A stretch of 64,000 nucleotides of DNA from Candidatus Iainarchaeum sp. (GTDB taxonomy: Archaea > B1Sed10-29 > WALL01): NCBI GenBank assembly GCA_023129115.1, contig JAGMCR010000011.1, positions 32,001 through 96,000 of the forward strand, given 5' to 3'. The notes under the pieces are model-generated. The model worked only from the letters and a program-made list of their open reading frames with translations, did not search any database and was not told the origin of the DNA. Shown here in pieces: positions 1 to 36,395 of the stretch. A program made the position numbers and the translations under genes. Position 1 is the first letter of the stretch; every line of letters starts with the position of its first letter.

Positions 1-3000
1 GGGGGCCTTGCCAGTCCCGGTTATGGGTGCCTTCACAGAGACCCCGCTGCCCACGGCAATCTCCTGCCAGTAGTTGAGCCCGCTTATCCCCGGGGCATTG
101 ACGCCCATTGTGAACGTCTGGTCGGCCTCGCCCTGGTTCCGGAACTCTATCTCCACGTCAATTTCCCGCGGGCCTTCCTGCGACAGCGAGCCGAGCGTGT
201 CAAGTGGCAGGAACCTCCCCCAGTTGCAGCCGCCGGGGTATCCCGCTGGCGGGCACACGAGCGCCTTCGGCACGATGGCAGCCTTCACGCCGGGAATCGG
301 CGTGTCGAACTCTATGTCTTCGGGATTAAGGCCTTGCGACCCGTCGACCGTGAAAGTGAGCGGGCTCTTCCTGTTGTTGAAGAACTCGAGCGTGGCCTCC
401 TTGACCGCGCTCATCGCCGCCATCTTCATGATGATGTGGACTGGCTCGCCTTCCCTGATTTCGTACTGGAGGCTCGCGGTCTGCGGCAGCGAGGGCGACA
501 TTGCTTTCGTTTCGCCGCCGGCCTCGTACTCAATCGGCCTGATGTGCTTGGCGCCGCTGGACGGCGGGCGCGAGTCAAGCTTTATGGTGAATGTCTTCGA
601 GTTCTTCTTGGGCATGGCGAGCACGTGCACGTACAGCTGCTCCCCCGGCATAAGCAGCGCGCTCTCGCTCCACATTCCTTCGGGCGCGTCATAAGCACCA
701 AACCCCGCCTTGTAGCTGCTGAAGTACGCGTTGATTAGCTCTGTCCACTCTGTCCCGCCCGTGAGCGTGACCTGTGTTTCCTGCCAGCCGCCCTGGATTT
801 TTTCGCCGCCAGTGGTCTCCCAGCGCGCGCGGTAGTGCAGTGTTGTGCTGCCCCTCGCCTCTGCCTTGGCGATTAATGGAATCGTGACAGTGTGCGTCCC
901 GCCGGGGGCAGAGTACCGGATGTACTTTGAAGTGCCTGGCTCTTCCTTGATGGGCGGCTCGCCGCCGCTGTAGACGTCACTCGCCTTGACAGTGCTCCCG
1001 CTTGGGCCCATTACCTCGCCGAGCTCGACGGGCGTGTTGATTGGGTGGTCCTTGCTGCCCTGCTCTCCGCTCCATACCTCGATTACTGTGGCGGCGTACT
1101 GCTTCCGCGCGCCGAGTGAGCTGACAGTCGCCTGGGCAGTGCCGCCCGGGAGCATGGAGTCCGGCGCATCCATCACAACCGATTCTCCACCCACTGGGTC
1201 GGGCGTGCTGAACATCAGGTAGGCCTCAGTGTCGCCGGTCACGAGTATGCTGCTGCTACTGGCCGGCGGGTAGTCCCTGTACTCGCCCTCGAGGTAAATG
1301 CTCTGGCTGAGGTAGACCTCAAACTCGGCTTTCCCGTCCGCGCCGGTCTGCTTCTCGTCCAGCTTTTCGCCAGTGGCCCTGGACAGGAGCCGCACTGTTG
1401 CCCCACTCAAAAACTCTGTGAGCGTCTTGGCCCTCACCGCCAAAACAAATCCCTTGGGCTGGACAGTTATTGTCTTTTCGACCACACCCCCTGCCGCCAG
1501 CTCGAATCCCTCAAACTCCTGCGGGCTTGGGGTCGCGGGCGCGACTGCGCTGAGCCCGTACTGCCCGGGCGCCATGCCCTCGAACACGCACTTGCCGCTG
1601 TCGCCGGTGATGCAGTCGCCTGCCGTGATGTCGCCCCACGTGAGGAGCACGCGGGCGTTTTGGAGCGGCATTGTATCGGGGGCGAGCACGATTATTTTGA
1701 TTATCCCTTCGTCGCCTTCCACGACCTCGGCAAGGTCTATGTCGGCGGCTTCGCCAGCGCTGAACTGTGTGCTCCCGGGGTAGTAGCCACGCGGCGCCGA
1801 CTCTGCGCTGTATGTCCCACTGTCGAGCGAGACTGTCTTCTGCCCGCTGGCGTCGGCATTGGCCTTGACAAGGGTGACGCCGCCCTGCTTGACCATGATT
1901 GGCGCCCCGGCGAGCGGCGAGCCGCTGCCTGTGACGCGTATAGTGCTTTGCAGCCCGTCGTCCATCTTGAGCAGCACTTCCATTGAGTCGTCCGCCTTCA
2001 GGAGGCTGCTTGTTGCCGGGGCGTACACTTGGTTCAGGTCTTCTGCCCTCACCATGAACTCGAGGCCTTCAGCGATTTTGAGGACTGCGCTGCCGTCGAT
2101 GTTGGTGACGTCACTGGTTTTTGTGTTGCGGTAGCCCGTGATGTACTCGTTGCCGAGCGTGTCAATTGCAAGCACCCTGATGTTCGCAAGGCCCTGCCCA
2201 TCGCGGTTCTCGACTGTCACGTAAACGTTGTACAATGTTTCTGCCTTGAGCCCGCCTGTCCCGCTTGCGTGCACGAGGACTTCGCCGCTGATTCGCGCTT
2301 CGCTGACTATTTCGTCTGCGGTTGCGCGGCGGCTGTGCCAGTCGCAGTCGATGAATATTTCGTAGTCGTCCTGCACGCACTTTTCTGTGGAGAACATGAG
2401 GCGGTTCGTGCTGTCGATTACCCACTGGGTGTCTACTTCTCTGCCGTCTGGCGTGGTGGCGCTGAGCCGGCAGTTGCTTGGCTCGATGTTGTCTTCGCCC
2501 ACGATTCTTGCTGTGGAAAGTGTTTCTGGGAGCTCGAGGCATCCGCCGAATATTGCGCTGGTGAGGCACTCCATGTCGATTTCCCTTTCGCCGTCGCCAT
2601 CGACTTCTATTTCCAGTTCCCTGTCCTCACAGTTTTCGCGCGAGAGCTCGAGCCTGACTGTGCCGCGCGGCAATGACAGCTCCACTATTCCGTCGCTGCC
2701 TGTTTCGCCGCTGTCCACAAGGGTTTCCCCGGCGTATGCGCTCACTTGGACGCTGTCGAGCGCGCGGCCGTCGGCGCTTGCCTTGATTGTTATCTGGGCA
2801 CCCCCGCCCCCAAGGAAGAGGAATGCGATTCCGCCGATGATGAGCAGCAGCACAGCAATCGCGACGAGCACGCTCGGCACTTTTTCGTCGATTGGGTCAA
2901 TCACCTTGTACACGGGCACGCCTTTCGAGTCCAGAAAGTCAAGCAATGAGTACCACGGCCCCTCGAGGGCTGACAGTATCCCACCCCCCTGCTTTGCCGG

Positions 3001-3033
3001 CACCGGCGCCTGCCCACTCGTCGTCTCGTCCAT
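1..3033 (-). CDS. Giant surface protein paralog 3 (N-terminal membrane anchor, carboxypeptidase-regulatory-like/Ig repeats); 3' end lies beyond the window, >1010 aa
   Basis: Absent from the ORF track because no stop falls in the window. Hand translation from ATG 3033 gives MDETTSGQAPVPAKQGGGILSALEGPWYSLLDFLDSKGVPVYKVIDPIDEKVPSVLVAIAVLLLIIGGIAF, matching the N-termini of the two upstream giants. A GGTGA RBS at 3041-3045 overlaps the previous stop. Plus-strand shadow ORFs keep one register down to the window start. Confidence 0.9.
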   Translation of the reverse strand, partial: MDETTSGQAPVPAKQGGGILSALEGPWYSLLDFLDSKGVPVYKVIDPIDEKVPSVLVAIAVLLLIIGGIAFLFLGGGGAQITIKASADGRALDSVQVSAYAGETLVDSGETGSDGIVELSLPRGTVRLELSRENCEDRELEIEVDGDGEREIDMECLTSAIFGGCLELPETLSTARIVGEDNIEPSNCRLSATTPDGREVDTQWVIDSTNRLMFSTEKCVQDDYEIFIDCDWHSRRATADEIVSEARISGEVLVHASGTGGLKAETLYNVYVTVENRDGQGLANIRVLAIDTLGNEYITGYRNTKTSDVTNIDGSAVLKIAEGLEFMVRAEDLNQVYAPATSSLLKADDSMEVLLKMDDGLQSTIRVTGSGSPLAGAPIMVKQGGVTLVKANADASGQKTVSLDSGTYSAESAPRGYYPGSTQFSAGEAADIDLAEVVEGDEGIIKIIVLAPDTMPLQNARVLLTWGDITAGDCITGDSGKCVFEGMAPGQYGLSAVAPATPSPQEFEGFELAAGGVVEKTITVQPKGFVLAVRAKTLTEFLSGATVRLLSRATGEKLDEKQTGADGKAEFEVYLSQSIYLEGEYRDYPPASSSSILVTGDTEAYLMFSTPDPVGGESVVMDAPDSMLPGGTAQATVSSLGARKQYAATVIEVWSGEQGSKDHPINTPVELGEVMGPSGSTVKASDVYSGGEPPIKEEPGTSKYIRYSAPGGTHTVTIPLIAKAEARGSTTLHYRARWETTGGEKIQGGWQETQVTLTGGTEWTELINAYFSSYKAGFGAYDAPEGMWSESALLMPGEQLYVHVLAMPKKNSKTFTIKLDSRPPSSGAKHIRPIEYEAGGETKAMSPSLPQTASLQYEIREGEPVHIIMKMAAMSAVKEATLEFFNNRKSPLTFTVDGSQGLNPEDIEFDTPIPGVKAAIVPKALVCPPAGYPGGCNWGRFLPLDTLGSLSQEGPREIDVEIEFRNQGEADQTFTMGVNAPGISGLNYWQEIAVGSGVSVKAPITGTGKAP

Positions 3034-3044
3034 TGCTTTTTCAC

Positions 3045-6000
3045 CTATACTATCGGTACGGCATCCACTTCTGTATCACTTTGTGTTTCGCATGTTTTCG
3101 TGCCCTCACGCCACTCATACCAATAATCCCAATTGCTCTCGCATGAAACAAAGTCAAAAGAGATTCCGTCCGCAAAGTAGCCACTGTCCCTGCTTGCTGC
3201 CCTGCACTCGTCCTCGTTCAGCCACTCGCCATAGTCCTCGTAGTCGTTAAGGAGGTCCCATGATGCAAAGCAGCCATCTATCACAACATCATAGCCACTG
3301 GGGGCTGCCACTCCTATCCCCATGTCTATCTCAGCCGCATCACAAGCAATGTGTCCGAGGCCCATCCCACCAAGGCCAAGAACAACAATACCAATTACTC
3401 CGGCAACCCCGACTATTGTAAGGGGGGTAGTTAGCCCAACGGTAATTACGTTCAGAGCCACCAATGAAATCACGATAAGTGCTGCCAGGGCAGCCGCACC
3501 AATGGCAATGAATGCCCCTTTCCAGAAGCCCTCGCATACCTCATCATGGCAGTCCTGCATATTGTCGTACGCAACGTAAGTATACATGCAATGCTTGTAT
3601 TCCCCGCCAACACATTCCCCATAGCCGAGGGTTTTGCATCCAAGCGCACTGTTGAATTCCCCATCCCTGTTGACGTCTTCCTTGTTGCCGACGCGGTCCT
3701 CGGCATAGTAGCAAACAGAGTACCCTCCCTCGTCTTGGTCTTCTTCGGTGAAGCTTGTGGAAGCGAAGTACCTCCACCTCTTTTTCCCCGTCTCCAGCGC
3801 CTTTGTATCGAGCTGGACCATGCTGTGGTACTCTTCGTCAAGCTTCACTGTTTTGTCTTTAACTGATATCCCAACCTTAGTGAATCTCTCAAATGCACTA
3901 GCATCAATCCCATAGCCTGCCAATTCCTCGTCTGAAAGGCGTATATTCGCGACATTGTCAAAGTCATTAACTTCAAATCCTGCTTCCCAAGCCACGCTAG
4001 CACAGCCACCCTCGCCGCCCTTGCCGATGCCGGTGTATACCTTCGCAGTGCTTGCGTAGTCCCCAACTGCTTTGCCATTGCTGTCGACACCCACAAAGTT
4101 TGTGCGCAGGTTCTGCGGGGCCTTAACCTTTCGTTCGTCGCCAGTGGCCTGGCTCAACCCCACGTACGTGGTAACCGGCGGAGTCGTGTCGAGCACAATC
4201 GGGTCCAGCGCCCGCGACATCATAACCGGGACGCCAATCTCGGCGCACTGTATCTGTATCCCCGTGTTCCGCCCCTCCCGTGTGATGACCCGGTCGCCGG
4301 ACGGGCTAATCGTCGGGCAGTTGTAAAACTTCTTGTAGTCCGAAATGCTCTTGGTGGGCGGTCCGCAGCTCACGCTCACGCCCATCGAGTTGCTGATACT
4401 GCACCCGGTCAGCGGGTTCTCGGCAGACACGGAAATCGGAATCACGAGATTGTCCGTGTTGACAATGAAGTAGCCACCCATCTCCATGAACCCGTGGACC
4501 TCTCCCTTGTCCTGGTCACACTTCGCGTCCGGCGTCGGGCCGTCAAGCGTCTTCATCCGCTCCAGCTCTGTAACAGGCGGGTCGCGGTAGGACTCGCAGC
4601 TGTACTGGATTCCTATTTCCGCCGTGCTCATCCTGAACACAGTCTTCTCTTTTCCCGCGGTGTTGCCGTGCACGTCAGTGCACGTTATGTTGAGCCTGTT
4701 GTGGCCCGTTGCCGTTGGCTCGCACCGGTCCATGATGTCCTCGTTCAGTGCGAGCGGCGGCGTGTCGCACGTCACCGTGTACTTGTTCCCGAGCAGCGGG
4801 TCGTCCACCGGGATGCCCACGGAGCACGTGCTCTCGTGAAGCTCTGGCGGGCATTCCCCGATTATCTTGCATTCAGCGACTTCGTACTTGTCAGTCACAG
4901 TGAACGTCGCCTTGACAGTCTCTTCTGTCGTCGCGCGATCCATTTTTTCGATTGTTATCACTGGCGCGTTGCGGTCGAGTATAATCTGCATGGACTCCCT
5001 CGTGGACCAGAGCCCGTCCGGCGACACACACGCCGCCTTCACTGTGTACATGCCGTCGCTTTCCTGGTTGAGGTTCCATTCATAGACCATAAGCGTGTTC
5101 TCGTCCTTCCACGGGTAAAAGTCCTTCCCGTACGGCGCGCCGTATGTAGCCGGCGACTGGCTCCCGCGCTCGCCGTCATAGTTCCAGACGTGGCACGTGG
5201 CGACCTCGCCCTCCACTTCAATTTCGACTGAAATCGTGGGGTCGCCAGTGGCTTTGGCGCCCAATTCGTACGGCGTGAGGGAATGGAGTTTCATTGATAT
5301 CTTTGGTATTTCGAGGCCGCCTGCCTGCACGCACTTGTCGAGGTCGAACACCTGCTGGCTGTTCCCTGTAAGGCGCAGGCTCCCGGAGTCGCCAAGCGTC
5401 CAGTACAAGGCCAGGTTCGAGAGCATGCACTCCCTGTGCCTTTCCAGGTTGTCCTCGCGCTCGTAGACAATCCCCATCTGCACGTCCCCATACGAGTCAA
5501 TGTTAAAGAATCCCGTGCTCTCGTACTCTGGCTTGAGCCACTTGTGCTTCGGGTCAGTGAGCTCCGCGTACTCGCTGGCGGTGAACTCCCTGTAGCTGAC
5601 CACATGCGGGGCCTCGCTTTCCCCGACAACCTCTTCCGGGTCAAAGTTCCCAAACAAGTGCTCCTTCGGCACGTACTTGTACACTGTTGAAGTAAACTTG
5701 TTGAGGTCGCTGTCCTGGGTGAAGCCGGCGTACTTGACTATCAGGAATGTCCTGGCCTCGTCGCGCAAGCCCTCGTCGTAGTTCATCATGCCGAGGAACA
5801 CGTTGGGGCTTTGGCCGCACCATCCCCAGCCGGCGTCCATGTCGATGTTGGCAGTGATTTTCTCGCCAAGCCCCTTCTCGAAAAGAATGGTCACCACGCC
5901 GCAGCCGATTTGTTCCTGGCTAATCACGAGGCTCCCGTCCTTGGCAAACGCGGCCTTGTGGACCACGTCACTGATGTACCTCGACCCATGCGCCATCCTC

Positions 6001-21249: not shown

Positions 21250-21260
21250 CTTATATACTC
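21250..21260 (+). promoter_or_regulatory. Extended TATA box CTTATATACTC for the pilus ATPase operon
   Basis: Lies in the 35-bp divergent gap and ends 21 nt before ATG 21281. Confidence 0.6.
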
Positions 21261-21280: not shown

Positions 21281-23587
21281 ATGGCTGAGGAGAAGAGCCC
21301 TTACACTGTTAAGACTGAAGGCACAATCAAGTACCTGATTATTGACTGCCGCGGCTCGACCTACGGCCCAAGCATTGCGGACTACCCCCAGCGCATGTCC
21401 GAAGTAATCGGGTATTTGGGCAAGACAGACGCCGACCGCATCGTCCTCGCCGAAGTATACGAGCGCGTCTACGACGAGGACCAGACGCGCATGCTGAAGC
21501 AGCTCGCCGAGCTCCTGCAGAAGTTCCGCGTCAAGGGGGTGTGGTCCCCGCAGTACCTCGGCGGCGACGCGTGCTCCGCGTTCCTCCCCACGCGCCACGA
21601 CCTCGTCGTAAACATCGCGTCGGACCTCCTCCGCACCGACCCAATCCGCGCGTACATGAAGTGCATCCAGGCAATCCAGCGCGAGAAAGCACAGCTCCCC
21701 CAGCTGCCGCCCGAGCAGAAAGAATGCACGCAGACATTCCTCACCACGCTCGAGTACATCAAGGCAAACTTCGAGGCCACGGACCTAATCCAGCAGCTCA
21801 AGGGCTACGTCCGCAAGCTCAAGAAGCTGCCGCCAGGCCGCGGCTTCTACCACACCGTGTTCGAGGCCCAATTAAAGCCGTCGTTCATCGGCTCCCGGCT
21901 CATGTTCAAGCTCCCCGCGGAAATTGAGCTCCTCGACCAATACGAGGTCAAGGGCACGCGCGTGACAATCTACAAGCACCCCGAAAAAATCGAGTACCTA
22001 TACCACATCAACCCGCCCGAGTACTCCCTCACCCCCGAGCACTACTTCCTCTTGAGCAAGACAAAGGAAATAGTGAGCGAGTACCACCCCGAGGGCCTTG
22101 AGTTCACAGAGCTCGCGACGAGCAAGGACTACTTCATGCGCATCTACGAGACGACCATCGCAGACATCGCGCGGCAAAACGGAATCGAAGTCTCGCATAC
22201 AGACATCCAGCAGCTCGCGCGCATCGTCGCGCGCTACACCATAGGCTTCGGCATGATGGGACTGCTTTTGTCGGACGAGCGGCTCACCGACGTATACATC
22301 GACGCGCCGCTCGGGCAGAAGCCCGTGTACATTGTCCACAGCGACTACGGCCCGTGCCAGACCAACGTGTTCTTCTCGGAAGAAGAGGCCAACTCCGTGG
22401 TCTCGCGCTTCCGCTCCCTGTCGGGCAGGCCGTTCGACGAGGCGCACTCTGTCCTGGACTTCGACCTGCACGAGTACCACACGCGCACGTGCACAATCGG
22501 CCAGCCGCTCTCGCCGGACGGCGTCGCGTTCGCCTTGCGCTTGCACAAGGGAACGCCGTGGACCCTGCCGCAGTTCATCGACGTGAAGATGGTGACGAAC
22601 GAGGTCGCGGGACTGCTGTCATTCCTGATTGACGCGCAGGCGTCCTCGCTCATCGTCGGGAGCAGAGGCTCGGGAAAGACTTCATTATTAATGTCGCTCA
22701 TGCTCGAAATCCTCCCCTCGCTGAGGGTCATAACTATAGAGGACACGCTTGAGCTGCCGGTCGAGTACATGCGCAAGACCGGGTACAACATCTGCCGGCT
22801 CAAGACAAGGAGCGCAATCTCTGTCGGCGCGATTGCGTCCGAGGTGTCGCCCGAGGACGCGCTCCGCACCGCGCTCAGGCTTGGCGACTCTGTACTCATC
22901 ATGGGCGAGGTCCGCTCCAAGGAAGCGCTCGTGCTGTACGAGGCCATGCGCGTCGGCGCAGTGGGCAACGTTGTGATGGGCACAATCCACGCCGAGAACG
23001 CCTACTCTGTGTGGGACCGCGTTGTGAACGACCTCGGCGTGCCGAACACCTCGTTCAAGGCGACGGACATGTGCATTGTCTCCGCGCCAATCAGGTTCAA
23101 GGGAGCGCTGCAGAAGACGCGCCGCCTCGTCGAAATCACCGAGGTCGGCAAGACATGGTACGAGGACCCGGGCCGCGAGGGCGGCTTGATTGACCTGATG
23201 ACGTACGACGCGACGAACGACGTGCAGACCGTGCACAAGGACAACATTTTCGAGAACTCGCAGTTCTTCAAGAAAATCCAGCGGAGGCGCGGCATGGACA
23301 TCGACATGATTTGGGAGGACATCCAGCACCGCGCGTCCTCCAAGCAGTTCCTCGTGGACATGAAAAACGAGTACAAGATTCCCACGCTGCTCGAGGCGAG
23401 GTACACCGTCAGGATGAACGACAAGTACCTCCTGATGCAGGAGCTGTCGCGCCAGGAGCTTGGCAGTGTGGACTACCCCAAGGTGCTCGAGGACTGGAAG
23501 CAGTGGGTCAAGGACGGCTTCGTGAAAGAGCTGGTCTCGAGGAGGGATGCGCTTGCCAAGGTCAAGCCGGCGGCAAAAAAAGAGTGA
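21281..23587 (+). CDS. Type II/IV secretion ATPase (VirB11/FlaI/PilB-like) with long N-terminal domain
   Basis: Walker A GSRGSGKT, Asp box TIEDTLEL, Walker B LIMGEVR, His box GTIHAE. Start MAEEKSP; the ORF-track extension overlaps the sortase gene. Confidence 0.92.
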   Translation: MAEEKSPYTVKTEGTIKYLIIDCRGSTYGPSIADYPQRMSEVIGYLGKTDADRIVLAEVYERVYDEDQTRMLKQLAELLQKFRVKGVWSPQYLGGDACSAFLPTRHDLVVNIASDLLRTDPIRAYMKCIQAIQREKAQLPQLPPEQKECTQTFLTTLEYIKANFEATDLIQQLKGYVRKLKKLPPGRGFYHTVFEAQLKPSFIGSRLMFKLPAEIELLDQYEVKGTRVTIYKHPEKIEYLYHINPPEYSLTPEHYFLLSKTKEIVSEYHPEGLEFTELATSKDYFMRIYETTIADIARQNGIEVSHTDIQQLARIVARYTIGFGMMGLLLSDERLTDVYIDAPLGQKPVYIVHSDYGPCQTNVFFSEEEANSVVSRFRSLSGRPFDEAHSVLDFDLHEYHTRTCTIGQPLSPDGVAFALRLHKGTPWTLPQFIDVKMVTNEVAGLLSFLIDAQASSLIVGSRGSGKTSLLMSLMLEILPSLRVITIEDTLELPVEYMRKTGYNICRLKTRSAISVGAIASEVSPEDALRTALRLGDSVLIMGEVRSKEALVLYEAMRVGAVGNVVMGTIHAENAYSVWDRVVNDLGVPNTSFKATDMCIVSAPIRFKGALQKTRRLVEITEVGKTWYEDPGREGGLIDLMTYDATNDVQTVHKDNIFENSQFFKKIQRRRGMDIDMIWEDIQHRASSKQFLVDMKNEYKIPTLLEARYTVRMNDKYLLMQELSRQELGSVDYPKVLEDWKQWVKDGFVKELVSRRDALAKVKPAAKKE

Positions 23588-23606
23588 CTCCACTCCCAAA
23601 ACGGAC

Positions 23607-25748
23607 GTGGCAGAGCTCCTCTTCGGCGCGGGCAGGAAGAAGCCCAAGAAGAAAAAAGTGGAGAAGCAGCACTGGTACATCGGCTTCTGCAAGAGAGCGG
23701 CCAAGTCCTTCGGCAAGGGCGCGAAGAAGGAATTGACCGAGCAGTACAAGGTCGCGCTCGCCTTCCTCGGGTGGAAGCTGAAGCCCGAAGAAGTCAACGC
23801 CGCGCCGTTGGTGCCGATGTACTACGGCATGGCGCTCGCGTTCGTGTGGGCGCTGCTCAACCTGGTGTTCTCCGGCTTCATCAACGTTGGCCTTAAGCCG
23901 ATTGTTATCCTTGGCACGGAAACAGGCCGCGGCGCAATCGAGGGCGGCTTCCTCCTGATTGGCCACCCGCTTTCGATGGGCATCCCGCTGTTCTGGTACC
24001 TCGCGCCGTTCGCCATCGCGTTCTACGCGATGTACTATATACAGTCCACGCCGATGCGCGAGGCAGAGAAGCTGCGCATCCGCTCGCTCACATTCATCCC
24101 CGAAATCGTGAACTACTTTGTCATGGCGATGAAGGTCACGCCCAACCTCGAGCGCGCGATTGCGTTCGTCGCGGAGCACGGCCAGGGCCGCGTCGCCGAG
24201 GACTTCAAGTCGCTGCAGTACGACATCCACGTCGGCAAGTACCGGACCGTCGAGGAAGCTTTGGACAACCTCGCGTGGAAGTGGGGCGACTACTCCCCGG
24301 AGTTCAAGCACGCACTGATGCTCATCCGCTCCTCAGTAATGGAGGCGGACGAGGGCAAGCGGAACGACCTGCTGGACAAGGCAATCACGGACGTGCTCGA
24401 GGGCATCCAGGAAAAAATGGACTTTTATTCCCGCGCCATGCACCAGCCGAGCATCTACCTCTACTACTTCGGCGTGCTGCTCCCGCTCCTCCTAATCATC
24501 ATCATCCCTGTCGGCGCGATGATGGGCGGCGGCGGCATCGCGTGGCTCGCGGGCGCCATACCCCTCGCAATCATCTACAACGTGATGATTCCGGCCGCGT
24601 CGTTCCTCCTCGCGAAGAGCATTCTCGGGAAGCGGCCGCCGACGCGGGACGTCCCAAAAGTCCCCGTGGGCATGCCCGGCCTCCCCAAGCCGGGGTGGTT
24701 CAGCATCGGCGGGAGCCAGCTGCCCGTGACGTTTGTCGCCGCCGCGATTCTCGTTGGAATTGTCGCTGCGTCGTTCCTCGCGACGCCCATACTCGACCCC
24801 ATGCCGCGCGTGTTCGAGCCAATGTACGACTCGTACTGCCTCATCGGCTCGCCGACCGGCCTGTGCATCCCGTACCTCCAGTACGCCGGCATCCTTTTGG
24901 GCATCGTGGCCGCGTTCGGGTTCCACATGTGGTCGAACCACAAGGACCGCTGGGCCATGCAGCGCGAGATAATCCAGATGGAGAACGGGTTCCAGGAGAC
25001 ATTGTACATACTCGCGTCCCGCCTCGGCGAGGGAAGGCCGATGGAGGACGCGATGAAGCACGCGGCAGAGTTCATCCCCAACTCCCCCGCGACCAAGCGC
25101 ATTTTCCTGCCGACGCTGCACAACATGCGCATGCTCGGCATGACAATCAAGATGGCTTTGTTCGACGAGGCGTACGGCTCCTTGCGGTTCATCCCGAGCG
25201 GGTTCATCAAGGGCACGATGCGCATCGTGGTCGACTCGCTGGGCCTGGGCGTCCAGACCGCGGCCAAGTCACTGATTTCCCTTTCCCTCCAGCTCCGCGC
25301 CATGCAGAAAGTCGAAAAAGCGCTCAAGGCAATGCTTTCGGACATCACGAGCATGATGAGCACGATGAGCATGTTCATCGCCCCGGTCGTGCTTGGAATC
25401 ACCATCGCCTTGCAGCAAATCATCATGGGCGCGATGAAGTCCATGGGCGAGGCGGGCTTAGGGCAGCAAAGCACTGCGAACGTCCCCGGCATGAGCGCGT
25501 TCAAGATGCCCGAGCTGGGGGGCGGCGAGGCGCTCGAGGCCGCCGCGACGCAGGCAGAGCTATTGTTCATAATCAGCTTTTACATGGTCGAGATAGTCGT
25601 AATCCTCATGTACTTTGCCTCGCACGTTAACGAGGGCGACAACGAGCTCGCGTTCAAGATGGCGATTGCGCAGGCGCTGCCGATTGCGATGGCGATTTTC
25701 TTTGGCGTGACGTTCATGGCAATGAAGATGACGGCGATTGGGATCTGA
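23607..25748 (+). CDS. Pilus membrane platform protein (FlaJ/TadC/T2SSF-like, two repeats)
   Basis: Polytopic. Two T2SSF-like halves (AMKVTPNLERAI; LASRLGEGRPMEDA). Follows the ATPase. Start uncertain (GTG 23607 or ATG 23547). Confidence 0.85.
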   Translation: MAELLFGAGRKKPKKKKVEKQHWYIGFCKRAAKSFGKGAKKELTEQYKVALAFLGWKLKPEEVNAAPLVPMYYGMALAFVWALLNLVFSGFINVGLKPIVILGTETGRGAIEGGFLLIGHPLSMGIPLFWYLAPFAIAFYAMYYIQSTPMREAEKLRIRSLTFIPEIVNYFVMAMKVTPNLERAIAFVAEHGQGRVAEDFKSLQYDIHVGKYRTVEEALDNLAWKWGDYSPEFKHALMLIRSSVMEADEGKRNDLLDKAITDVLEGIQEKMDFYSRAMHQPSIYLYYFGVLLPLLLIIIIPVGAMMGGGGIAWLAGAIPLAIIYNVMIPAASFLLAKSILGKRPPTRDVPKVPVGMPGLPKPGWFSIGGSQLPVTFVAAAILVGIVAASFLATPILDPMPRVFEPMYDSYCLIGSPTGLCIPYLQYAGILLGIVAAFGFHMWSNHKDRWAMQREIIQMENGFQETLYILASRLGEGRPMEDAMKHAAEFIPNSPATKRIFLPTLHNMRMLGMTIKMALFDEAYGSLRFIPSGFIKGTMRIVVDSLGLGVQTAAKSLISLSLQLRAMQKVEKALKAMLSDITSMMSTMSMFIAPVVLGITIALQQIIMGAMKSMGEAGLGQQSTANVPGMSAFKMPELGGGEALEAAATQAELLFIISFYMVEIVVILMYFASHVNEGDNELAFKMAIAQALPIAMAIFFGVTFMAMKMTAIGI

Positions 25749-26226: not shown

Positions 26227-26228
26227 CC

Positions 26229-26272: not shown

Positions 26273-26725
26273 ATGCAACGTGGACAAGCATTTGATGCAT
26301 TCAAGCTTCTGATAGCCGCTGTCGTGGCAGGCGCCATTTTGGTCATCCTGCTCTCGATGATTAGCGGGTTCGTGCCTGTGGGCCAGGACCCACTGACGGT
26401 CATGGGGCAGGAGCTGAACAAGGTCAAGAAGGGCGGGGTTTGCTCGACTTCTTCCCAGGTAGTCCAGTTCAGCGATGGCCAGGAGTTCAGCGCGGACGCA
26501 GTGGCCCGTGAGGCAGGAATCAACTTGGGCCAGGTGCAGTTCTGCTGCAGCGGCGTTGAAGACGAGGGGGGCAAGTGTGATGGCTATATGTTCGACGACG
26601 AGGACGCGTTCGACTGTGATGAAGCGTCATTACTGGTAACCGCACAAATGTCCGGCAAAGTCCGTTCTTGTTGCCCAATCAGCAGTGATGCGCCCTGCGT
26701 CATTGGCTTCAAGGCAAGCAGGTAG
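26273..26725 (+). CDS. Pilin-like protein, candidate major pilin (own promoter)
   Basis: MQRG/QAFDAFKLLIAAVVAGAILVILL; Cys-rich; resembles the preceding gene. Confidence 0.8.
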   Translation: MQRGQAFDAFKLLIAAVVAGAILVILLSMISGFVPVGQDPLTVMGQELNKVKKGGVCSTSSQVVQFSDGQEFSADAVAREAGINLGQVQFCCSGVEDEGGKCDGYMFDDEDAFDCDEASLLVTAQMSGKVRSCCPISSDAPCVIGFKASR

Positions 26726-26897: not shown

Positions 26898-27005
26898 CCA
26901 GGGAAGGGGGACACCCCCCAGCCCTGGACGTTGACCTACGGCCAACGTCAACCTGCACGGGATACCTGACCCCCGCAAGCTCGCTTGCGCTCGCAGTTTT
27001 TTTTT
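26898..27005 (+). terminator. Series of hairpins ending in a T9 tract after the pilin operon
   Basis: CCAGGG..GGGGG-ACA-CCCCC..CCCTGG, GACGTTG..CAACGTC and CGCAAG..CTTGCG, followed by TTTTTTTTT. Confidence 0.55.
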
Positions 27006-27064
27006 CCGTCAACGCTTTTCCACCGGGCGAGCGGAGCGAGTAACAGGAAAAGGGTTGTTATAAT
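27000..27064 (+). repeat. REP/MITE-like palindromic element, copy 1
   Basis: TTTTTTCCGTCAACGCTTTTCCACCG...GTAACAGGAAAAGGGTTGTT; a related copy sits inverted at 31675-31755. Confidence 0.7.
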
Positions 27065-27308
27065 CTGCGGTGGCCAGCGCGTCTGCTACGATGCCGCGAG
27101 TATTTTGCTTGTGTATGGGATGATAATGGAGCAAGGCAAACAATTTGGTAAATTATCGATTCGACAAGGTAGTCACGGATAGTACAATTTCAATCTGGAA
27201 AACGGTGGTTGATGTTCGAATCCAGTCTATGCCCCTACTTGATGCCTCGGCAAGTTATATCAGTCATCTTTAAATACCTGTTTTTGTGTGTGTATAAGGG
27301 GGGATAAA

Positions 27309-27803
27309 ATGAGTGTCACGGAAAAGTACAAAGAAGTAGTTCACTACATAATCCAAGAATGCCAAAAATCCCCCACCTTTGGCATGACTCTCTTATACAA
27401 ACTCCTCTATTTCACAGACTTCGATTATTACGAGCTCAATGGAACATCTATTACGGGTACTGACTACCGCAGAATCCCTTTGGGGCCAGCACCTTGCGAC
27501 ATAGACATAGTTCTTTCACAACTAAAGGCAGAGGGTGCAATAAAAGAAACCCGCCTAGAATTTAGCGGGGTAAAACAAAGACGGCTTATTCCACTAGAGC
27601 CCGCAAAACCTGAACACCTTTCCGCCATTGAAATAAAACATATTGACAACGAAATCCAAAAATACTCTGGTTGGACAGCTAGGAACATCAGCGCTTTTTC
27701 TCACGAAGACATGCCCTTCAAAGCAACAGAGGAAAATGAACTAATCGACTACAAACTAGTGTTTTATCGGGGCGATAAGTTTTCTGTAAGGCAAGAAGAA
27801 TGA
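27309..27803 (+). CDS. Panacea (DUF4065/SocA-like) antitoxin
   Basis: KLLYFTDF...Y..GTSITG..Y.RIPLGPAP and SHEDMP motifs; low GC; overlaps the toxin gene by ATGA. Confidence 0.8.
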   Translation: MSVTEKYKEVVHYIIQECQKSPTFGMTLLYKLLYFTDFDYYELNGTSITGTDYRRIPLGPAPCDIDIVLSQLKAEGAIKETRLEFSGVKQRRLIPLEPAKPEHLSAIEIKHIDNEIQKYSGWTARNISAFSHEDMPFKATEENELIDYKLVFYRGDKFSVRQEE

Positions 27804-28159
27804 CATTCAACATAGGAAGCGTTCCAGAGTTCGATAAAGACTTAAAACGCTTGTCGAAAAAATATCGAACGTTGGATAGCGACTTCGAGACTTTTCAGAA
27901 AGCGTTGGCCGTTGACGGCCCAGCTCTTGTTGGAGTTGTTAGGATTAGTGGTTTGGGGGAGAATGTTCATACGCCCATCTACAAGGCAAGAAAATTCTAT
28001 TGTCAGGAGCTCAGGAAGACTAGAAGCGGGTTCAGGGTAATATACGCCCATGTGTGTGCTGAGAACAAGATAACCCTTCTTGAGATGTACCACAAGAACA
28101 AACAAGAAAATGAGGATAAGAAACGAGTCTTCAAGTATTTTGGTGAACCTAGTCCTTGA
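27800..28159 (+). CDS. RelE/HigB-like mRNase toxin
   Basis: PEFDKDLKRLSKKY...KARKF...SGFRVIY...LLEMYHK; coupled to the antitoxin. Confidence 0.75.
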   Translation: MTFNIGSVPEFDKDLKRLSKKYRTLDSDFETFQKALAVDGPALVGVVRISGLGENVHTPIYKARKFYCQELRKTRSGFRVIYAHVCAENKITLLEMYHKNKQENEDKKRVFKYFGEPSP

Positions 28160-30975: not shown

Positions 30976-31374
30976 ATGGCTGTAGTATATGTCGATACTA
31001 ATGTCTATCTTGACTATTTTGAAAACCGCTGTGACCGGCTGAGGCCGCTCGGCGAGTTTGCCTTCCAATTTTTTAGGAGGGCGCTGAAATGTGAATTTGA
31101 GATTGTAATGTCAGACCATGTCATGGATGAGCTCGAGTCAGTTGTTTCTATTGAAACGATTGACATGTTTCTTGAGCCACTAAAAAAGAAAAATAAGATA
31201 AAGCTTGTTTTTGTGGAGCAAGCAGACGTCAGGAGGGCAAAGCGTTTGCCGACTCACTGGCAGGATGCGCTCCACGCCGTACTGGCCGAGAAAGCCGGAG
31301 CTGAGTTAATTGTAACCCGCAATGCTAATGACTTCGCCGGATTATTCCAGGCCGTATTTCCTGAAGATGTCTGA
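30976..31374 (+). CDS. PIN-domain (VapC-like) ribonuclease
   Basis: VYVDTNVYLD, MDELE, WQDALHAVLA, IVTRNANDF. Confidence 0.88.
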   Translation: MAVVYVDTNVYLDYFENRCDRLRPLGEFAFQFFRRALKCEFEIVMSDHVMDELESVVSIETIDMFLEPLKKKNKIKLVFVEQADVRRAKRLPTHWQDALHAVLAEKAGAELIVTRNANDFAGLFQAVFPEDV

Positions 31375-31623
31375 CCGGTCCTTCTGGATGTTTTTTTCCG
31401 CCCACGCCTGGCGTTCCTTGCGAGTCATTCTTTTTATTGGCTTGACGCTCCCCTTCAACTTCTCAAGCTTGCGGATGGCGACCATGGTCTCGTATTCCTC
31501 GTTCATCCGGCGAATGCTTTCCCTCACGTATTCTTGGACATTGCTGAACCCGAACTCATTGGCAAGGGCCTTTGCTTCCTTGTAGGCCAGGTCAGGAATG
31601 CGCAAGTGCACCATCTTCCCCAT
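31342..31623 (-). CDS. Ribbon-helix-helix antitoxin-like protein, convergent with the PIN gene
   Basis: MVHLRIPDLAYKEAKALANEFGFSNVQEYVRESIR has the RHH pattern. Confidence 0.7.
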   Translation of the reverse strand: MGKMVHLRIPDLAYKEAKALANEFGFSNVQEYVRESIRRMNEEYETMVAIRKLEKLKGSVKPIKRMTRKERQAWAEKNIQKDRSDIFRKYGLE

Positions 31624-31674: not shown

Positions 31675-31755
31675 ATTAAACAACCCTTTTTCTGTTACAG
31701 GGGGTTAGCAGGCAAGCTAACCCCCTGAACGGCGGAAAAGCGTTGATGGAAAAAA
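31675..31755 (-). repeat. REP/MITE-like palindromic element, copy 2 (inverted relative to copy 1)
   Basis: Reverse complement reads TTTTTTCCATCAACGCTTTTCCGCCG-[CAGGGGGTTAGC..GCTAACCCCCTG hairpin]-TAACAGAAAAAGGGTTGTT. Confidence 0.7.
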
Positions 31756-31765: not shown

Positions 31766-31776
31766 TTTATATACTC
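31766..31776 (+). promoter_or_regulatory. Extended TATA box TTTATATACTC
   Basis: Identical to the motif at 10478-10488; ends 21 nt before ATG 31797. Confidence 0.7.
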
Positions 31777-31796
31777 TCTAATGGTATAATCCTAGT

Positions 31797-34700
31797 ATGG
31801 ATAGGGCGTCCGCTGTGTTCATCGCGTTCCTCCTAATGTTCTCGCTGCTCACGCCATACACTGTGATGGCGCAGGAGAACGGCGGCGAAGAAGTGCCGGT
31901 GGCAGTGGTCATCCCTGCGAACGCGACTGGCTTCTGCCCGATTGGCCAGGCGCTTGAGGTCGTGAGCCTCGACTACCGCCAGGCCACTGCGCTGCAGGGC
32001 ATCGTGACGCAGGACATCGCGACTTCTGCCGAGGAGTACCGCAGGCAGGCCGCGCTCGAAGAGCTCGGCGTGGACACGCGGGGCGACCGCGCGAAGGTCG
32101 CGGACAAGTACAACTTTTATTTCATGGGCCCGGACGGGACCGTGTTTTACTACGAGGTCCTGGACGACTTGATGAAGCCGAACAACGGCTACTTGATTGG
32201 CACCGAGATAACCGGCCGCATCGAGTACGGCGGGCACTTGCGCGAGAACCTGGCGATGTGCGGCAAGACGCCCGCGAATGTAACGACTTCGCCGTGCTCG
32301 GACAACGCGGACATAGTGAAGCGCGAGAGCTATTTCGACAGCGTCAAGGCCGCGGCGTCTTCTCCGGACGCGAAGGCGCAGCTGATTTCGGTGGTCACGA
32401 CCCTCGCGCCGATGGAGGAATTGACTCCGGCGGACGTGCTGAACATTGGGCAGTCGCGCCTGCGGATGACGAGCTTCACCACAACGATGGCGACGAGCGG
32501 CCCGGGCTCCGCCGTATTTGTATTGCCACAAGCCCTCGTGATGTACACTGCGGCGATGAAGAAGCTCGACATGATTGACATCGCGCTTGCCGTGGTCGCG
32601 ATGGGCTCGATTTTCGCGAACCAGGGCCGCATGGCGAAGGACCTGGGCATGGAGGACACTGGCTTCTGGAAAAAAATCAAGGGAATGTTCAAGGCCAACA
32701 ACCCCACGAACGAAATCCTGGACGAGGCGGGCCACCTCCGCTACGCAGAAAACATTGTCGACAATTCAGCCGACTTCACGAGGTACATTGACGAGGCGCA
32801 GGAGCTCATAATTACCGGCAAGGACCCGAAAAAAATATTCCGCGCCACCGAGAACGCCCTGACAGAGGCAAAGAACTACAAGAACTCAATCAAGACCCTG
32901 AGCTCAAGGTACGACGACATGATAAAAAGCCTTGGCAAAAACTCCAAGCTGTCTGATGACGCAATAGGGGCTCTATTCCACAACTCCGACGACATGACGG
33001 CCTTCTTGAAGGCGAACGGCTATACTGATGAAGTAGCCCAAGAAATAATCAGCCTGAGGGTGACTGCGGGCCACATTGACGAGCAGTACGAGGCCGCCGC
33101 CGGCCTCTTTAGGGCGAAGGGAATGCCTTCACCAGAGTACGGCAGTGCCTTGGAGACGCTCCGCTCGATGACTGCGGGCGGAGAGCAGGTGTCTGGGATG
33201 GAGGTCCGTACGCCTTTCATGCTTTTAACCGAGGGCGGGCCCCCCGGAGGAATACCGTATGAAGTAGGCGACGTATTGACAGGCGCCAAGTGGCAGGACT
33301 TCGTAACGCAGCACAACCAATACGTAAAAAACTTCCATCCACATTCAGTGAAAGTGCTCGAGCCGAACACAATCGGCTACCTGGGCACGCACTATAACAG
33401 GCAGTACGGCGGCGCCGAAGCCGCTGACACGCTTGGCTCCCTCATCTTCGGGAGCAGGGGCCTGAAGACGCGCTCGGCCACAAACCCCGCCAAGCAGTTC
33501 GTTGGCGCGTTCAAGGGCGGGGCCAGGGCCGGCGCGGGCAGGGACGCAATCCTTGGCAGTGGCACGCTCGCCAAGGTGTCATCCCTCGCAATGCGCTCGC
33601 TCGGCGCGGGCATTCTGTTGGGACCGGCGACCAAGGCCATGATGATTGCGCGCGGCCTGCACTTCGTCAACGACCTGTTCTTCCGCCAGGGCTTCTTCGA
33701 GCTCACTGGCTCGGGCCTCACGCTCCGCTTCGACAAGGACGAAGTCGGGGGCATCTATTCCGACGAGTCGGTCGTCGTGCTCCTGGCCCAGAACTCGCTC
33801 GTCCGCGGGCTCCTAACGTCCTACATGGGCGGCGAGCTCGGCGCAATCTTCTTCGGCCTGCTCGGCGACGCCAGCGGCACGCTCGAGCCACTAACCAACA
33901 AGGCCAACCTGCTCGGCGACGTCCTCTTGTTCGGCGGCATAATGTACCCGCCAGCCGGCGGAGTCATCGAAGTGGTCGAGGAAAACCCGAGCGGCACCAC
34001 GCACATCGAGCAAAAGGAAAACTATTACATCATGCACATCCGCGAGTGGGACGACCACGTCTTCTCCGCCGTGGAAGACGTGCGCACCATGGAGAAGAGG
34101 AGCGACGAGGGAAGCATCGTCACCGCCATGGGCATGTGGACCCACAAAGTGGACCTCTACGGCCACATGTACTCGCAGGAGGACATGCCGGCAGGCGTCT
34201 TCACCAAGGCAGACCCCTTCATAAGCAAAATCGGCACGTGGGGCGTCTACTCCAACCTGCTGATTTCGTCGTCGGCCTACTACATGTTCTTCTCGCCAGG
34301 CCACATGACTGTCACGGGCAAAGCGTTCTCGATGCTCGGCATGCCCCTCGGCGCGTTCCTCACGGCCAAGGGGAGCATGCTCGCGGGCAGGGAATTCCTC
34401 ACGTCGCAATATACCTCGATGGAAAAGCTCGCCGCGTGCATCGCCCAGGAAGAAAACCGCACCACGCTGGAGGCGTTCAAGGAAGAGGCAATCGAGGCCA
34501 CCATCCCGGTCACGCAGCCGTTGAGGGAGCTAATCAGCGAAAAAATCGAGCCCGAGTACGAGTGCGGCAGGGCGTCGTGCGAGCAGGCGCTGAACGACTG
34601 CCTCAGGAACGAGGGAATGAGCTCCGCGGGAATGGCGGTCACGGGCGCGCTCGGCTACGCCGCTCTCGGCCCGGTCGGCATAGCAGCCGTCACCGTGGTG

Positions 34701-36395
34701 GACGTCGCAATGTCGATTTACAAAATCCAGTTGAGGAAATACTGCCTCGAGACCCTGGCGAGCTGCGACGAGCACACCTTCACCATCGTGGGCGCCGCGC
34801 AGTACAGCGACCCCGCACTGATTGCGGAGCAGCAGCAGAGCGAGCAGCTCAAGGGGCTGCCCGGCCTAGAGGAGCTGCCAATCAATGACTTCCTCGACGC
34901 GACCGGCCTCGGCAATGTCACGAACCCGCTCCAGGAGTTCTCGCAGCAGCAGCTCAACGTGCACACCGAGGGCTACGGCGCGTCTGGCAGGATAGCGTTC
35001 GACGAAGTCTTTTACACCCACCTGCAGGACGTCTCAATCCAGTGGCTCGAGGGCAACCTGCCCGTGAACCTGTGCTCCTTGGACGACAAGGGCGACCCCG
35101 AGGAAGAGAACTGCCTCAAAATCAACGGCGACTCGGTGATGGTGGGCGGCAGGACAATTGTCACGGACGAGCTCGTGCCCTTCAAGTGGATGGACACCGA
35201 GCTGCCGGCGCTGGTCATCCCCAACACCGCAGTGGTGGTCAACATAGCCAATGCCGGCGACTGCACGCTCTTCACGGTCGACAAGACGGGCACGCGCCTC
35301 TTGCTGCACGAGGACGTAATCAGCAAGTTCGAGTCAGAGGGCTTTGACGAGGTCGCGAGGATGCTCGGGACGCTCCGCGTAATCAACACAGACGAGGGCT
35401 CGATTTATCCGAGTGTTGACTACAACGGCGACTTCCGCCTGGAGCACGACCGGCCGGACGGCTCGTTCGGCTACAGCGAGGAGGGCGTCGAAGTCACGGC
35501 GTCCGCGAACGTGCTGTTCAAGAGCGACAGCTTCGGCTTCGAGTCCGCGGTCTTCACCGGCGGCTCCATCATCAAAAAGGGCGACAAAATCTATATTCTT
35601 CCCAAGTTCTTCATGCCCGAAATGAGCGGCAAGCAGTGGCTCCAGTACACGAAGGGCACGCCGTTCCGCAGCGACACGGGCGAGGCCCTCGAGGTGCTGG
35701 ACGCGGTCGGGAATGTAATCGGCCTCGACGCAGCCCTTGCGAGGATTCCGGGCGGCGAGAAGCTCGGCACCATCACGCGGCTCGACGCGTGGAAGGACGT
35801 GAACGGCGACGGCAAGGTCCAGGACGACGAGCAGGCCGGCTGGCGCTTCTACACGGACGAAAAGAACGAGTCCAAGTTCGAGATGTGGTACAACGGCGAG
35901 AAGGAAGTGTACGACGCGGACCAGATTGAGATTGACGAGGAGACTGGCAGCATCCGCGTGTACGAGAAGGACCAGCCGCACGTCGAGGCGAACCTGTTGA
36001 GGGAGCTCGAGACCAAGGTGGACTCGCTGGGTCGCACCTTATTGACAATCCGCGACGGCCAGGGCAACCTCTTGCTGGAGGAGGCGCTCGTCACTTACCT
36101 CAAGGGCACGGGCGGCGCAATCCGCTACGACGCGGACAACAACAACTATATTTTCGTGAACGGCCAGCCCGTTGAATTAAACAACGACTTCAAGCTCAAC
36201 GGCTTCAACCCAATCACGGGCAGGACCGACCCGCCGCTGCTCCAGCCGAGCAGCGCCCGCGCCGCGGTCTCGCCGTACGAGGAAGGCGAAATCGAGCCGC
36301 CGGCAGTGCCGCTGCACGAGGAAGGCATTGGGCTCCTGCTTTACGCCCTCGTGCTCGCCGCGGGGATGTACCTGGTCTACTACCGCAAGACTTAG
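31797..36395 (+). CDS. Large secreted protein, 1532 aa, with several internal hydrophobic helices and a C-terminal sortase-type signal
   Basis: Sec signal peptide (VMA/QE). C-terminus PPAVPLHEEG followed by a TM helix and YYRKT. Confidence 0.85.
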   Translation: MDRASAVFIAFLLMFSLLTPYTVMAQENGGEEVPVAVVIPANATGFCPIGQALEVVSLDYRQATALQGIVTQDIATSAEEYRRQAALEELGVDTRGDRAKVADKYNFYFMGPDGTVFYYEVLDDLMKPNNGYLIGTEITGRIEYGGHLRENLAMCGKTPANVTTSPCSDNADIVKRESYFDSVKAAASSPDAKAQLISVVTTLAPMEELTPADVLNIGQSRLRMTSFTTTMATSGPGSAVFVLPQALVMYTAAMKKLDMIDIALAVVAMGSIFANQGRMAKDLGMEDTGFWKKIKGMFKANNPTNEILDEAGHLRYAENIVDNSADFTRYIDEAQELIITGKDPKKIFRATENALTEAKNYKNSIKTLSSRYDDMIKSLGKNSKLSDDAIGALFHNSDDMTAFLKANGYTDEVAQEIISLRVTAGHIDEQYEAAAGLFRAKGMPSPEYGSALETLRSMTAGGEQVSGMEVRTPFMLLTEGGPPGGIPYEVGDVLTGAKWQDFVTQHNQYVKNFHPHSVKVLEPNTIGYLGTHYNRQYGGAEAADTLGSLIFGSRGLKTRSATNPAKQFVGAFKGGARAGAGRDAILGSGTLAKVSSLAMRSLGAGILLGPATKAMMIARGLHFVNDLFFRQGFFELTGSGLTLRFDKDEVGGIYSDESVVVLLAQNSLVRGLLTSYMGGELGAIFFGLLGDASGTLEPLTNKANLLGDVLLFGGIMYPPAGGVIEVVEENPSGTTHIEQKENYYIMHIREWDDHVFSAVEDVRTMEKRSDEGSIVTAMGMWTHKVDLYGHMYSQEDMPAGVFTKADPFISKIGTWGVYSNLLISSSAYYMFFSPGHMTVTGKAFSMLGMPLGAFLTAKGSMLAGREFLTSQYTSMEKLAACIAQEENRTTLEAFKEEAIEATIPVTQPLRELISEKIEPEYECGRASCEQALNDCLRNEGMSSAGMAVTGALGYAALGPVGIAAVTVVDVAMSIYKIQLRKYCLETLASCDEHTFTIVGAAQYSDPALIAEQQQSEQLKGLPGLEELPINDFLDATGLGNVTNPLQEFSQQQLNVHTEGYGASGRIAFDEVFYTHLQDVSIQWLEGNLPVNLCSLDDKGDPEEENCLKINGDSVMVGGRTIVTDELVPFKWMDTELPALVIPNTAVVVNIANAGDCTLFTVDKTGTRLLLHEDVISKFESEGFDEVARMLGTLRVINTDEGSIYPSVDYNGDFRLEHDRPDGSFGYSEEGVEVTASANVLFKSDSFGFESAVFTGGSIIKKGDKIYILPKFFMPEMSGKQWLQYTKGTPFRSDTGEALEVLDAVGNVIGLDAALARIPGGEKLGTITRLDAWKDVNGDGKVQDDEQAGWRFYTDEKNESKFEMWYNGEKEVYDADQIEIDEETGSIRVYEKDQPHVEANLLRELETKVDSLGRTLLTIRDGQGNLLLEEALVTYLKGTGGAIRYDADNNNYIFVNGQPVELNNDFKLNGFNPITGRTDPPLLQPSSARAAVSPYEEGEIEPPAVPLHEEGIGLLLYALVLAAGMYLVYYRKT

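Follow-up and report, generated by a model that had tools for sequence, protein, structure and literature searches.

We examined a 64,000-nucleotide stretch of Candidatus Iainarchaeum sp. (assembly GCA_023129115.1, contig JAGMCR010000011.1, positions 32,001 to 96,000), hereafter the window, which is part of one contig in a 1.25-Mb genome of nineteen contigs. The window carries most of a gene cluster with a secretion ATPase, a TadC-like membrane platform, class III signal-peptide (pilin-like) proteins, a sortase-family gene, giant surface proteins, and a protein of 1532 amino acids (aa). Two arms are transcribed divergently from a 35-base gap. The left arm runs from the sortase-like gene through a 693-aa class III protein to the giants. 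In the right arm are the ATPase, the platform, seven class III proteins, a protein with three transmembrane (TM) helices, and the 1532-aa gene (Table 1). A preliminary description of this DNA had reported a 36-kb locus with three giants. All of the genes it named are present, including the 693-aa class III protein, the seven further ones (156, 150, 54, 186, 208, 171, and 189 aa), and the 1532-aa protein with its signal peptide and sorting-type tail of Pro motif, TM helix, and basic residues. The extent had to be revised. The cluster continues past the window start on the same contig, where a fourth giant (2807 aa) and a 131-aa mini-paralog are found, and the whole locus measures 51.5 kb. It also contains two insertions, one of a SocA gene and a small partner (27288-28159) and one of a PIN gene and a convergent 93-aa gene (30976-31623). 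Both are absent at these positions in the relatives whose loci were mapped.

Table 1. Features of the cluster, in window coordinates.
Feature	Position	Strand	Remarks
Giant paralog 1, N-terminal 1011 of 2862 aa	1..3033	-	CarboxypepD_reg repeats; remainder before window start
Giant paralog 2, 2466 aa	3045..10445	-	N-terminal tag, one TM helix, immunoglobulin (Ig)-like stalk, variable distal part
Giant paralog 3, 2701 aa	10522..18627	-	N-terminal tag, TM helix, Ig-like stalk; Gly/Ala-rich variable C-terminal part
Large class III signal-peptide protein, 693 aa	18657..20738	-	18 Cys; conserved N-terminus
Small exosortase/archaeosortase-family protein, 168 aa	20739..21245	-	TIGR04178
TATA box 5' of ATPase	21250..21258	+	Motif of the preliminary description
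VirB11-type secretion ATPase, 768 aa	21281..23587	+	PF00437; long N-terminal extension
TadC-like platform, 733 aa, single gene	23547..25748	+	About 8 TM helices; similarity to 4F TadC
Pilin-like protein, 156 aa	25756..26226	+	Paralog of 150-aa protein
Pilin-like protein, 150 aa, candidate major subunit	26273..26725	+	Own TATA box; predicted model
Mini-pilin without head domain, 54 aa	26733..26897	+	
Minor pilin-like protein, 186 aa	28245..28805	+	Opens four-gene block
Minor pilin-like protein, 208 aa	28805..29431	+	Four-gene block
Minor pilin-like protein, 171 aa	29409..29924	+	Four-gene block; mature N-terminus Pro/Gly/Asp-rich
Minor pilin-like protein, 189 aa	29915..30484	+	Four-gene block
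Membrane protein with 3 TM helices, 142 aa	30505..30933	+	Within the order, adjoins pilin block or 1532-aa gene
1532-aa protein	31797..36395	+	Signal peptide; Pro-motif/TM/basic tail

The cluster is real, larger than first reported, and conserved in two phyla. Our sample of its own phylum comprised twenty-seven genomes, each at least 70 per cent complete. The platform was found in twenty-five of these, and the 1532-aa family in the same twenty-five at one locus each (a single-sequence search for this family found only eleven genomes of the order). The giant N-terminal region was present in 23/27 and the sortase-family gene in 26/27. Distances on the platform contig were short: the sortase gene lay within about 8 kb in 18/25 genomes, the 1532-aa gene within about 12 kb in 19/25, and a giant within about 10 kb in 14/25, with the remaining eleven contigs ending on that side. 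Fifteen relatives whose loci were mapped have the same gene set, with local inversions. Among 151 Micrarchaeota genomes drawn from that phylum, the platform was matched in twenty-one and closely in nineteen. The same nineteen hold the 1532-aa family, and the N-terminal tag of the giants was found in these nineteen plus one weak match. Four of the Micrarchaeota (G087, G177, G144, G108) have a near-complete cluster in one place. Throughout the phylum and in part of the Micrarchaeota, this ATPase clade remains linked to the giants, the sortase gene, and the 1532-aa gene, with gene set and order retained and the genes present or absent together.

The ATPase scores 69 bits against PF00437 (cut-off 24.9), with intact Walker A, Walker B, Asp, and His boxes, and close relatives of it are deposited as Diapherotrites, Iainarchaeum, or Micrarchaeota, which places the source, a tiny and probably symbiotic cell, among the cluster-1 DPANN archaea. 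In a quick tree its clade is long-stemmed and separate from the genome's five other secretion ATPases. A plasmid search returned an ATPase of Haloterrigena turkmenica with 38 per cent core identity, compared to about 27 per cent for other haloarchaeal matches. This protein, from plasmid pHTUR04, scores 222-248 bits against the DPANN clade and no more than 110 against the other ATPases tested, and it is the sister of the DPANN clade in a quick tree (Shimodaira-Hasegawa-like approximate likelihood ratio test 100; long branch). Both are quick trees, the second with a single 4F reference, and were built without Aap, Ups, Epd, PilB3, 4C, and Nanoarchaeum NEQ425. The TadC and pilins of the pHTUR04 locus belong to subclade 4F in the table of Makarova 2016 (PMC4858521). 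When the pHTUR04 TadC was searched against the genome, the window platform was the sole match (E = 3e-28; 4.5e-46 with the family hidden Markov model, HMM).

The preliminary description was right about a divergent ATPase/platform operon. A Pfam scan gave no T2SSF match for the platform, and the identity of this protein is based on its similarity to the 4F TadC. The platform was assigned to arCOG01814, as in 4F. At least three DPANN homologs of the ATPase, Micrarchaeota among them, are binned as arCOG01818 in a 2026 census, one of them two genes from an arCOG01814 platform (PMC13705601). Matches to the 4F pilins were sparse: an arCOG02981 protein matched the 150-aa family HMM weakly (E = 2.6e-6), and arCOG10216 gave no match. 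Other systems fit less well. The archaellum motor model (FlaI/ArlI, NF058587) gave 130 bits (cut-off 550), with no other arl model matching the locus proteins, and the BasE-type ATPase model of the bindosome (4I), NF053672, reached 76 bits of a cut-off of 1000. The layout of system 1 (Epd) also differs, since the cluster has a single 733-aa platform and its ATPase homologs are arCOG01818. On one long-branch reference, then, the core groups with subclade 4F and appears 4F-like. The available portions of PMC4858521 and PMC13705601 give no tested function for 4F.

Several other secretion genes were noted along the way. The cluster ATPase is enlarged to 1030-1790 aa in some relatives (L047 of G019, L057, L088, L089, L109, L110), and two of these enlarged proteins contain intein and homing-endonuclease Pfam domains. 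In two Micrarchaeota, genes near the ATPase (L057:5558-7855 and L088:10141-12744) have an N-terminal motif that we take to be SMC/Rad50-like. SMC is a 4F neighbour in the 2026 census (PMC13705601). Across the whole genome (G000, 1.25 Mb) there are six ATPases of the VirB11 type, along with several dozen candidate class III proteins, and many of the latter have large passenger domains. One of these ATPases lies at 40980-44258 of the window, where it has an N-terminal 4Fe-4S domain and is accompanied by two TadC genes; in eleven of the fifteen phylum relatives mapped, no more than about 20 kb separated this locus from the main cluster.

The pilin-like subunits form eight class III families in which the K/R-G/A cleavage site and the hydrophobic helix are conserved. 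Each family retains its own cleavage site and N-terminal signature in both phyla, and current pilin models miss them. The order of the four-gene block (186, 208, 171, and 189 aa) is constant wherever it was mapped. Homologs of the 693-aa protein range from 257 to 743 aa around a conserved N-terminus, and the 156-aa and 150-aa families are the only detectable paralogs within the set (hhalign probability 99.3). In the 150-aa model (mean predicted local distance difference test, pLDDT, of 91), a hydrophobic helix is followed by a break, a second helix, and a beta-rich head. The stem of the model is pilin-like, and fold searches gave no family assignment for the head: neither a pilin nor any other clear match came up, Foldseek returned nothing at E 0.001, and the best structural hit was SusE (Z = 4.0, root-mean-square deviation 4.0, eighty-five residues aligned), a null result that does not establish a new fold. 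An AT-rich box precedes the 150-aa gene in 12/12 genomes, versus 0/5 for the 156-aa paralog behind the platform. Chance boxes are expected in these AT-rich genomes, and the pattern fits a possible role of the 150-aa protein as major subunit. For the prepilin peptidase there is one candidate with six TM helices (C13:72904-73773), picked out from its motif pattern only.

The exosortase-family assignment of the preliminary description held up, with a score of 33.3 bits against TIGR04178 (cut-off 23). This is the sole family member found in the genome. Its Cys, Asn, Arg, and His residues are kept in all sixteen homologs, and three of them, Cys68, Arg110, and His130, correspond to what we take to be the catalytic set of the exosortase/archaeosortase family. 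Scores for the named subfamilies were below cut-off (ArtB 36/150, ArtD 21/125, ArtE 33/95, pacearchaeosortase 23/80 bits).

The four giants of the contig (2807, 2862, 2466, and 2701 aa) and the mini-paralog have in common an N-terminal tag of about forty-five residues and one TM helix, and those in the window are 25-27 per cent identical over 1500-1900 residues. An Ig-like stalk at residues 250-650 is common to all sixty-four sequences compared, some of which are duplicated between sources, and later regions are common to fourteen at most. A profile search with the giant N-terminus was dominated by unrelated Ig-repeat proteins; 37 of the 150 matches listed carried the tag and were kept. A word-index search with giant 3 found four proteins, and residues 1100-1800 had no usable match in the ESM Atlas. 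At the distal end of giant 2, Cys residues flank a hydrophobic hairpin (residues ~2299-2368), a feature that among twenty-one complete giants was limited to this protein and three from Micrarchaeota. Our preferred view of the giants is that of stalks anchored at one end, with tips that vary. The mini-paralog (G000:C3:16977-17372) has just the tag, the TM helix, and one Ig domain, and short open frames bearing the tag also occur in G020, G021, G022, G023, and G026. Between the last giant and DNA polymerase B there are about seven small membrane-protein genes, one of them class III-like (G000:C3:13000-17400, ahead of the window start). This run is shared by G000, G010, G011, and G016 and may belong to the system.

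In the 1532-aa protein, the signal peptide and a conserved N-domain are followed by a hydrophobic helix (256-280), a hypervariable charged domain (281-585), a second hydrophobic helix (586-640), a Cys-clamped helical hairpin (926-995), a conserved beta-rich C-domain (996-1495), and the tail. An [LVI]P motif stands before the C-terminal helix and basic tail in twenty-five of twenty-seven homologs, the other two having no helix at the threshold used, and similar sorting-type tails occur on a few other proteins of the genome. Pfam gave no family for twenty-two homologs and one fragment scanned, and the ESM Atlas had no usable match. A model of residues 560-1500 (mean pLDDT 54) is weak outside the C-domain; fold searches with it returned weak beta-meander matches (TM-score at most 0.09) and generic helical-hairpin matches (Z up to 9.6 over about sixty-six residues).

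The middle domain of this protein is hypervariable, with a mean identity of 8 per cent and no pair above 31 per cent. It is nearly free of Cys and is rich in Lys and Arg (15.5 per cent, versus about 9 per cent). Across the twenty-seven homologs it contains two N-glycosylation sequons where 36.3 are expected (observed/expected 0.06), and the fewest seen in 1000 shuffles was twenty-one. The flanking hydrophobic helices and the hairpin contain none. By comparison, the conserved, Cys-containing N- and C-domains have sequons at the expected rate (54 vs 48 and 99 vs 103), cytosolic controls gave ratios of 0.96-1.05 (lowest of 2000 resamples 0.4), and secreted controls gave 1.69. An AglB/STT3 gene is present in the genome. 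From this selection against sequons we infer that the middle domain is exposed to the glycosylation machinery and has to remain unglycosylated, and the depletion fits a domain that may be inserted in or translocated across a membrane.

The preliminary description had further claimed that a shared promoter motif links these genes in one regulated unit. The motif is TTATATA, 20-60 bases 5' of gene starts, with copies at 21250 (+), 26229 (+), 31766 (+), 10487 (-), and 18653 (-), and it is an ordinary archaeal TATA box. TTATATA has 126 sites in the genome, six of them in the 51.5-kb locus against 5.2 expected by length. The form TTATATAC has thirty-nine sites, many of them 5' of housekeeping or unrelated genes. 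A longer variant, TTATATACT, is locally enriched, with four of its fourteen genome sites in the locus versus 0.6 expected. It is kept within the genus only and is not a conserved operator, because orthologous promoters of other genera carry different TATA variants. With TTATATA at chance density as well, we rejected the motif as a conserved operator, and co-regulation through this sequence is not supported.

We read the cluster as one inherited cell-contact apparatus of the cluster-1 DPANN archaea whose core is a type IV filament system akin to subclade 4F, and put the probability of this reading at roughly 0.55. Among archaeal type IV filament systems it would be a variant distinguished by its unusual accessory genes. 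The preliminary description had argued for more than a simple pilus, and this is supported because the linkage of the accessory genes is conserved and the ATPase groups with 4F, far below the archaellum and bindosome cut-offs. Going by what is known of the filament family, a prepilin peptidase encoded outside the locus would cut the eight class III proteins, and the ATPase and platform would initiate a filament on the products of the four-gene minor-pilin block together with the 693-aa protein, adding the 150-aa subunit to elongate it. With their N-terminal helix as anchor, the giants likely span the envelope on the shared stalk of about 600 residues, and their lineage-specific distal domains likely recognise and hold a partner. 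The 1532-aa protein is likely the substrate of the sortase-family enzyme, which would cleave its tail and attach the protein, probably to lipid as for ArtA. In the last and weakest step, the 1532-aa protein might respond to contact by inserting its hydrophobic helices and its hairpin in the partner membrane, perhaps taking the unglycosylated variable domain onto or across it.

A number of observations weigh against a single contact apparatus. In two Micrarchaeota the right arm is kept and the giants are about 290 kb (G117) and 90 kb (G179) from the platform, and in two more (G163, G049) the platform is alone within the stretch examined. Neither the giant tag nor the 1532-aa family was found in genomes of the Aenigmarchaeota phylum (0/61 for each), and in two Aenigmarchaeota loci, as in G062, the ATPase and platform form a pair that lacks the other cluster genes. 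Joint presence was scored in related genomes, where losses shared within a single clade may explain it. The units have no operator in common, and these genomes have not been linked to any host, culture, or image. For the 1532-aa protein, residues 726-825 and 1426-1500 are also low in sequons, ten distant homologs are sequon-poor outside the middle domain too (25 vs 46 and 13 vs 37), and the hydrophobic helices are moderate, with Kyte-Doolittle maxima mostly of 1.0-1.7. Strongly hydrophobic internal segments occur in 4/34 giants versus 25/82 unrelated repeat proteins, counts on which we also rejected, as a family trait, a harpoon-like role for the giants based on a hydrophobic hairpin at the distal end.

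The alternative that survives best, possible if on the unlikely side, is an ordinary 4F-type adhesion pilus in a conserved envelope-biogenesis neighbourhood, with parts that are inherited together and work separately. The giants would then be adhesins or wall struts and the 1532-aa protein a sortase-anchored wall component. Precedents for this can be found in several papers: 4F loci often include an S-layer-like gene (PMC4858521) and an adhesin-like protein (PMC13705601), and the best-studied archaeosortase substrate is the S-layer glycoprotein (PMC6098224). An adhesion pilus would also accommodate the bare core of the Aenigmarchaeota, the dispersed genes of some Micrarchaeota, and units that have nothing but TATA boxes in common. 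It does not account well for the exact joint presence of the platform and a single-copy 1532-aa gene in two phyla, and a sequon-free hypervariable helical domain with a Cys-clamped hydrophobic hairpin is not expected of a wall protein. The genome also encodes, at C19:60545-63028, a protein whose N-terminus appears to resemble that of euryarchaeal S-layer proteins, a further point against this alternative.

Doubtful in turn is an extension of the contact apparatus to insertion or delivery, in which a 4F-derived motor and giant tethers would bring the cells together, the sortase-anchored 1532-aa protein would put its hairpins into the partner membrane and so form a junction or pore, and its polymorphic unglycosylated domain would pass into the partner. 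The preliminary description had suggested that the apparatus penetrates a host cell. Signs of this are indirect, namely the helices, Cys-clamped hairpin, and sequon avoidance of the 1532-aa protein; against it are the lack of a known host, a hairpin that is not general in the giants, and the dispersal of the genes in some Micrarchaeota.

It is improbable that the cluster joins cells of the same kind, in mating, membrane fusion, or DNA exchange, with the variable domains serving self recognition. The 1532-aa protein is single-copy, vertically kept, and anchored, with internal hydrophobic hairpins, which would suit the general layout of fusion proteins. Archaeal precedents are the Ups pili, type IV filaments that drive aggregation for DNA exchange (PMC13705601), and the membrane tubes seen between Microcaldus cells by cryo-electron tomography (cryo-ET; PMC11329633). 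Set against these, no DNA-transfer gene was seen in the cluster, and our searches found it only in DPANN lineages with reduced genomes. More improbable still is a filament that acts as a short endopilus taking up DNA or other macromolecules, with giants as binding proteins and a 1532-aa protein that is polytopic in the membrane of the cell itself, its charged middle forming a cytoplasmic loop: we take the four-gene minor-pilin block and headless mini-pilin to recall pseudopilus systems, and the middle domain resembles a cytoplasmic loop in being Lys/Arg-rich and nearly Cys-free, but cytoplasmic sequences carry sequons at the chance rate rather than at 0.06 of it, the helices on either side are weaker than fixed TM segments would be expected to be, and the cluster showed no gene for a DNA-uptake channel.

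Outside the cluster, the window contains a separate group of large secreted proteins at 47896-63884 (1097, 527, and >3300 aa), with LamG, DUF2341, FG-GAP, and fn3 domains and with short repeats in common. At 46954-47910, a TnpB-like open reading frame of 318 aa, with a zinc-ribbon C-terminus recognised by eye, lies in a stretch of low GC content. A dispersed repeat, in which two conserved arms flank a variable hairpin, has about twenty-five copies in the genome (G000) and two in the window (27000-27059, +; 31679-31755, -), each pointing into one of the small insertions of the cluster. Other copies are 5' of tRNA genes or promoters. The repeat has no Rfam match, and the window as a whole gave no tRNA or Rfam matches. 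Among sequencing runs, no RNA set was listed as containing this DNA, and three DNA runs from a single study were, one of which may be its source.

Searches of open PubMed Central and bioRxiv (most subscription journals are outside their coverage) found no description of the cluster as a unit, and it is apparently undescribed in print. It bears on the means by which DPANN archaea attach to their hosts and draw nutrients from them. An ordered, vertically kept set of about fourteen gene families in two phyla makes a candidate cell-gripping apparatus, and it supplies both a sorting enzyme and a single-copy protein that may be membrane-active. Were insertion on contact true, archaea would have a type of contact-dependent delivery system for which the literature searched has no description. 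Contact structures have been imaged in other DPANN archaea by cryo-ET, including the envelope barrel of Microcaldus ARM-1 (PMC11329633) and the Nanobdellales attachment organelle with a portal and an 8-nm filament (bioRxiv 10.64898/2026.06.04.730037). The structures imaged, which include barrels, cones, and filaments, span the envelope, and their genes are not identified in the available parts of these reports; in our searches 132 of the 151 Micrarchaeota genomes were without the accessory genes.

Comparison with archaeosortase systems such as ArtA/PGF-CTERM of Haloferax volcanii and ArtB (TIGR04144) shows the same family signature, with invariant Cys, Arg, and His, and the probable substrate here likewise has a Pro motif, TM helix, and basic tail. 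The motif differs, being [LVI]P-x-x-P-like and not PGF, the enzyme is below every named-subfamily cut-off, and its gene is tied to a pilus locus. The Epd pilus (system 1) of Methanococcus also has many pilin-like genes, including a headless small pilin. System 1 uses two platform genes and an arCOG01817 ATPase (PMC13705601), whereas the main cluster, with its single platform, groups with 4F. A better match to the two-platform layout is the second ATPase locus at 40980-44258. Subclade 4F has one platform gene, as here. It differs in its pilins (arCOG02981/arCOG10216, versus eight lineage-specific families here), in having no linked sortase with probable substrate or tagged giants listed, and in its CetZ2, CBS, and SMC genes, none of which was found by Pfam among the window-locus genes (the arCOG02945 adhesin was outside that scan). 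Cognate pilins for nanoarchaeal 4F ATPases were not identifiable in Makarova 2016 (PMC4858521), and the subclade thereby gains a candidate set of DPANN pilins. Finally, the 2026 census describes Nanobdellati type IV filament genes as scattered, mostly unassignable, and seldom in one ordered locus (PMC13705601), in contrast to the single ordered locus found here.

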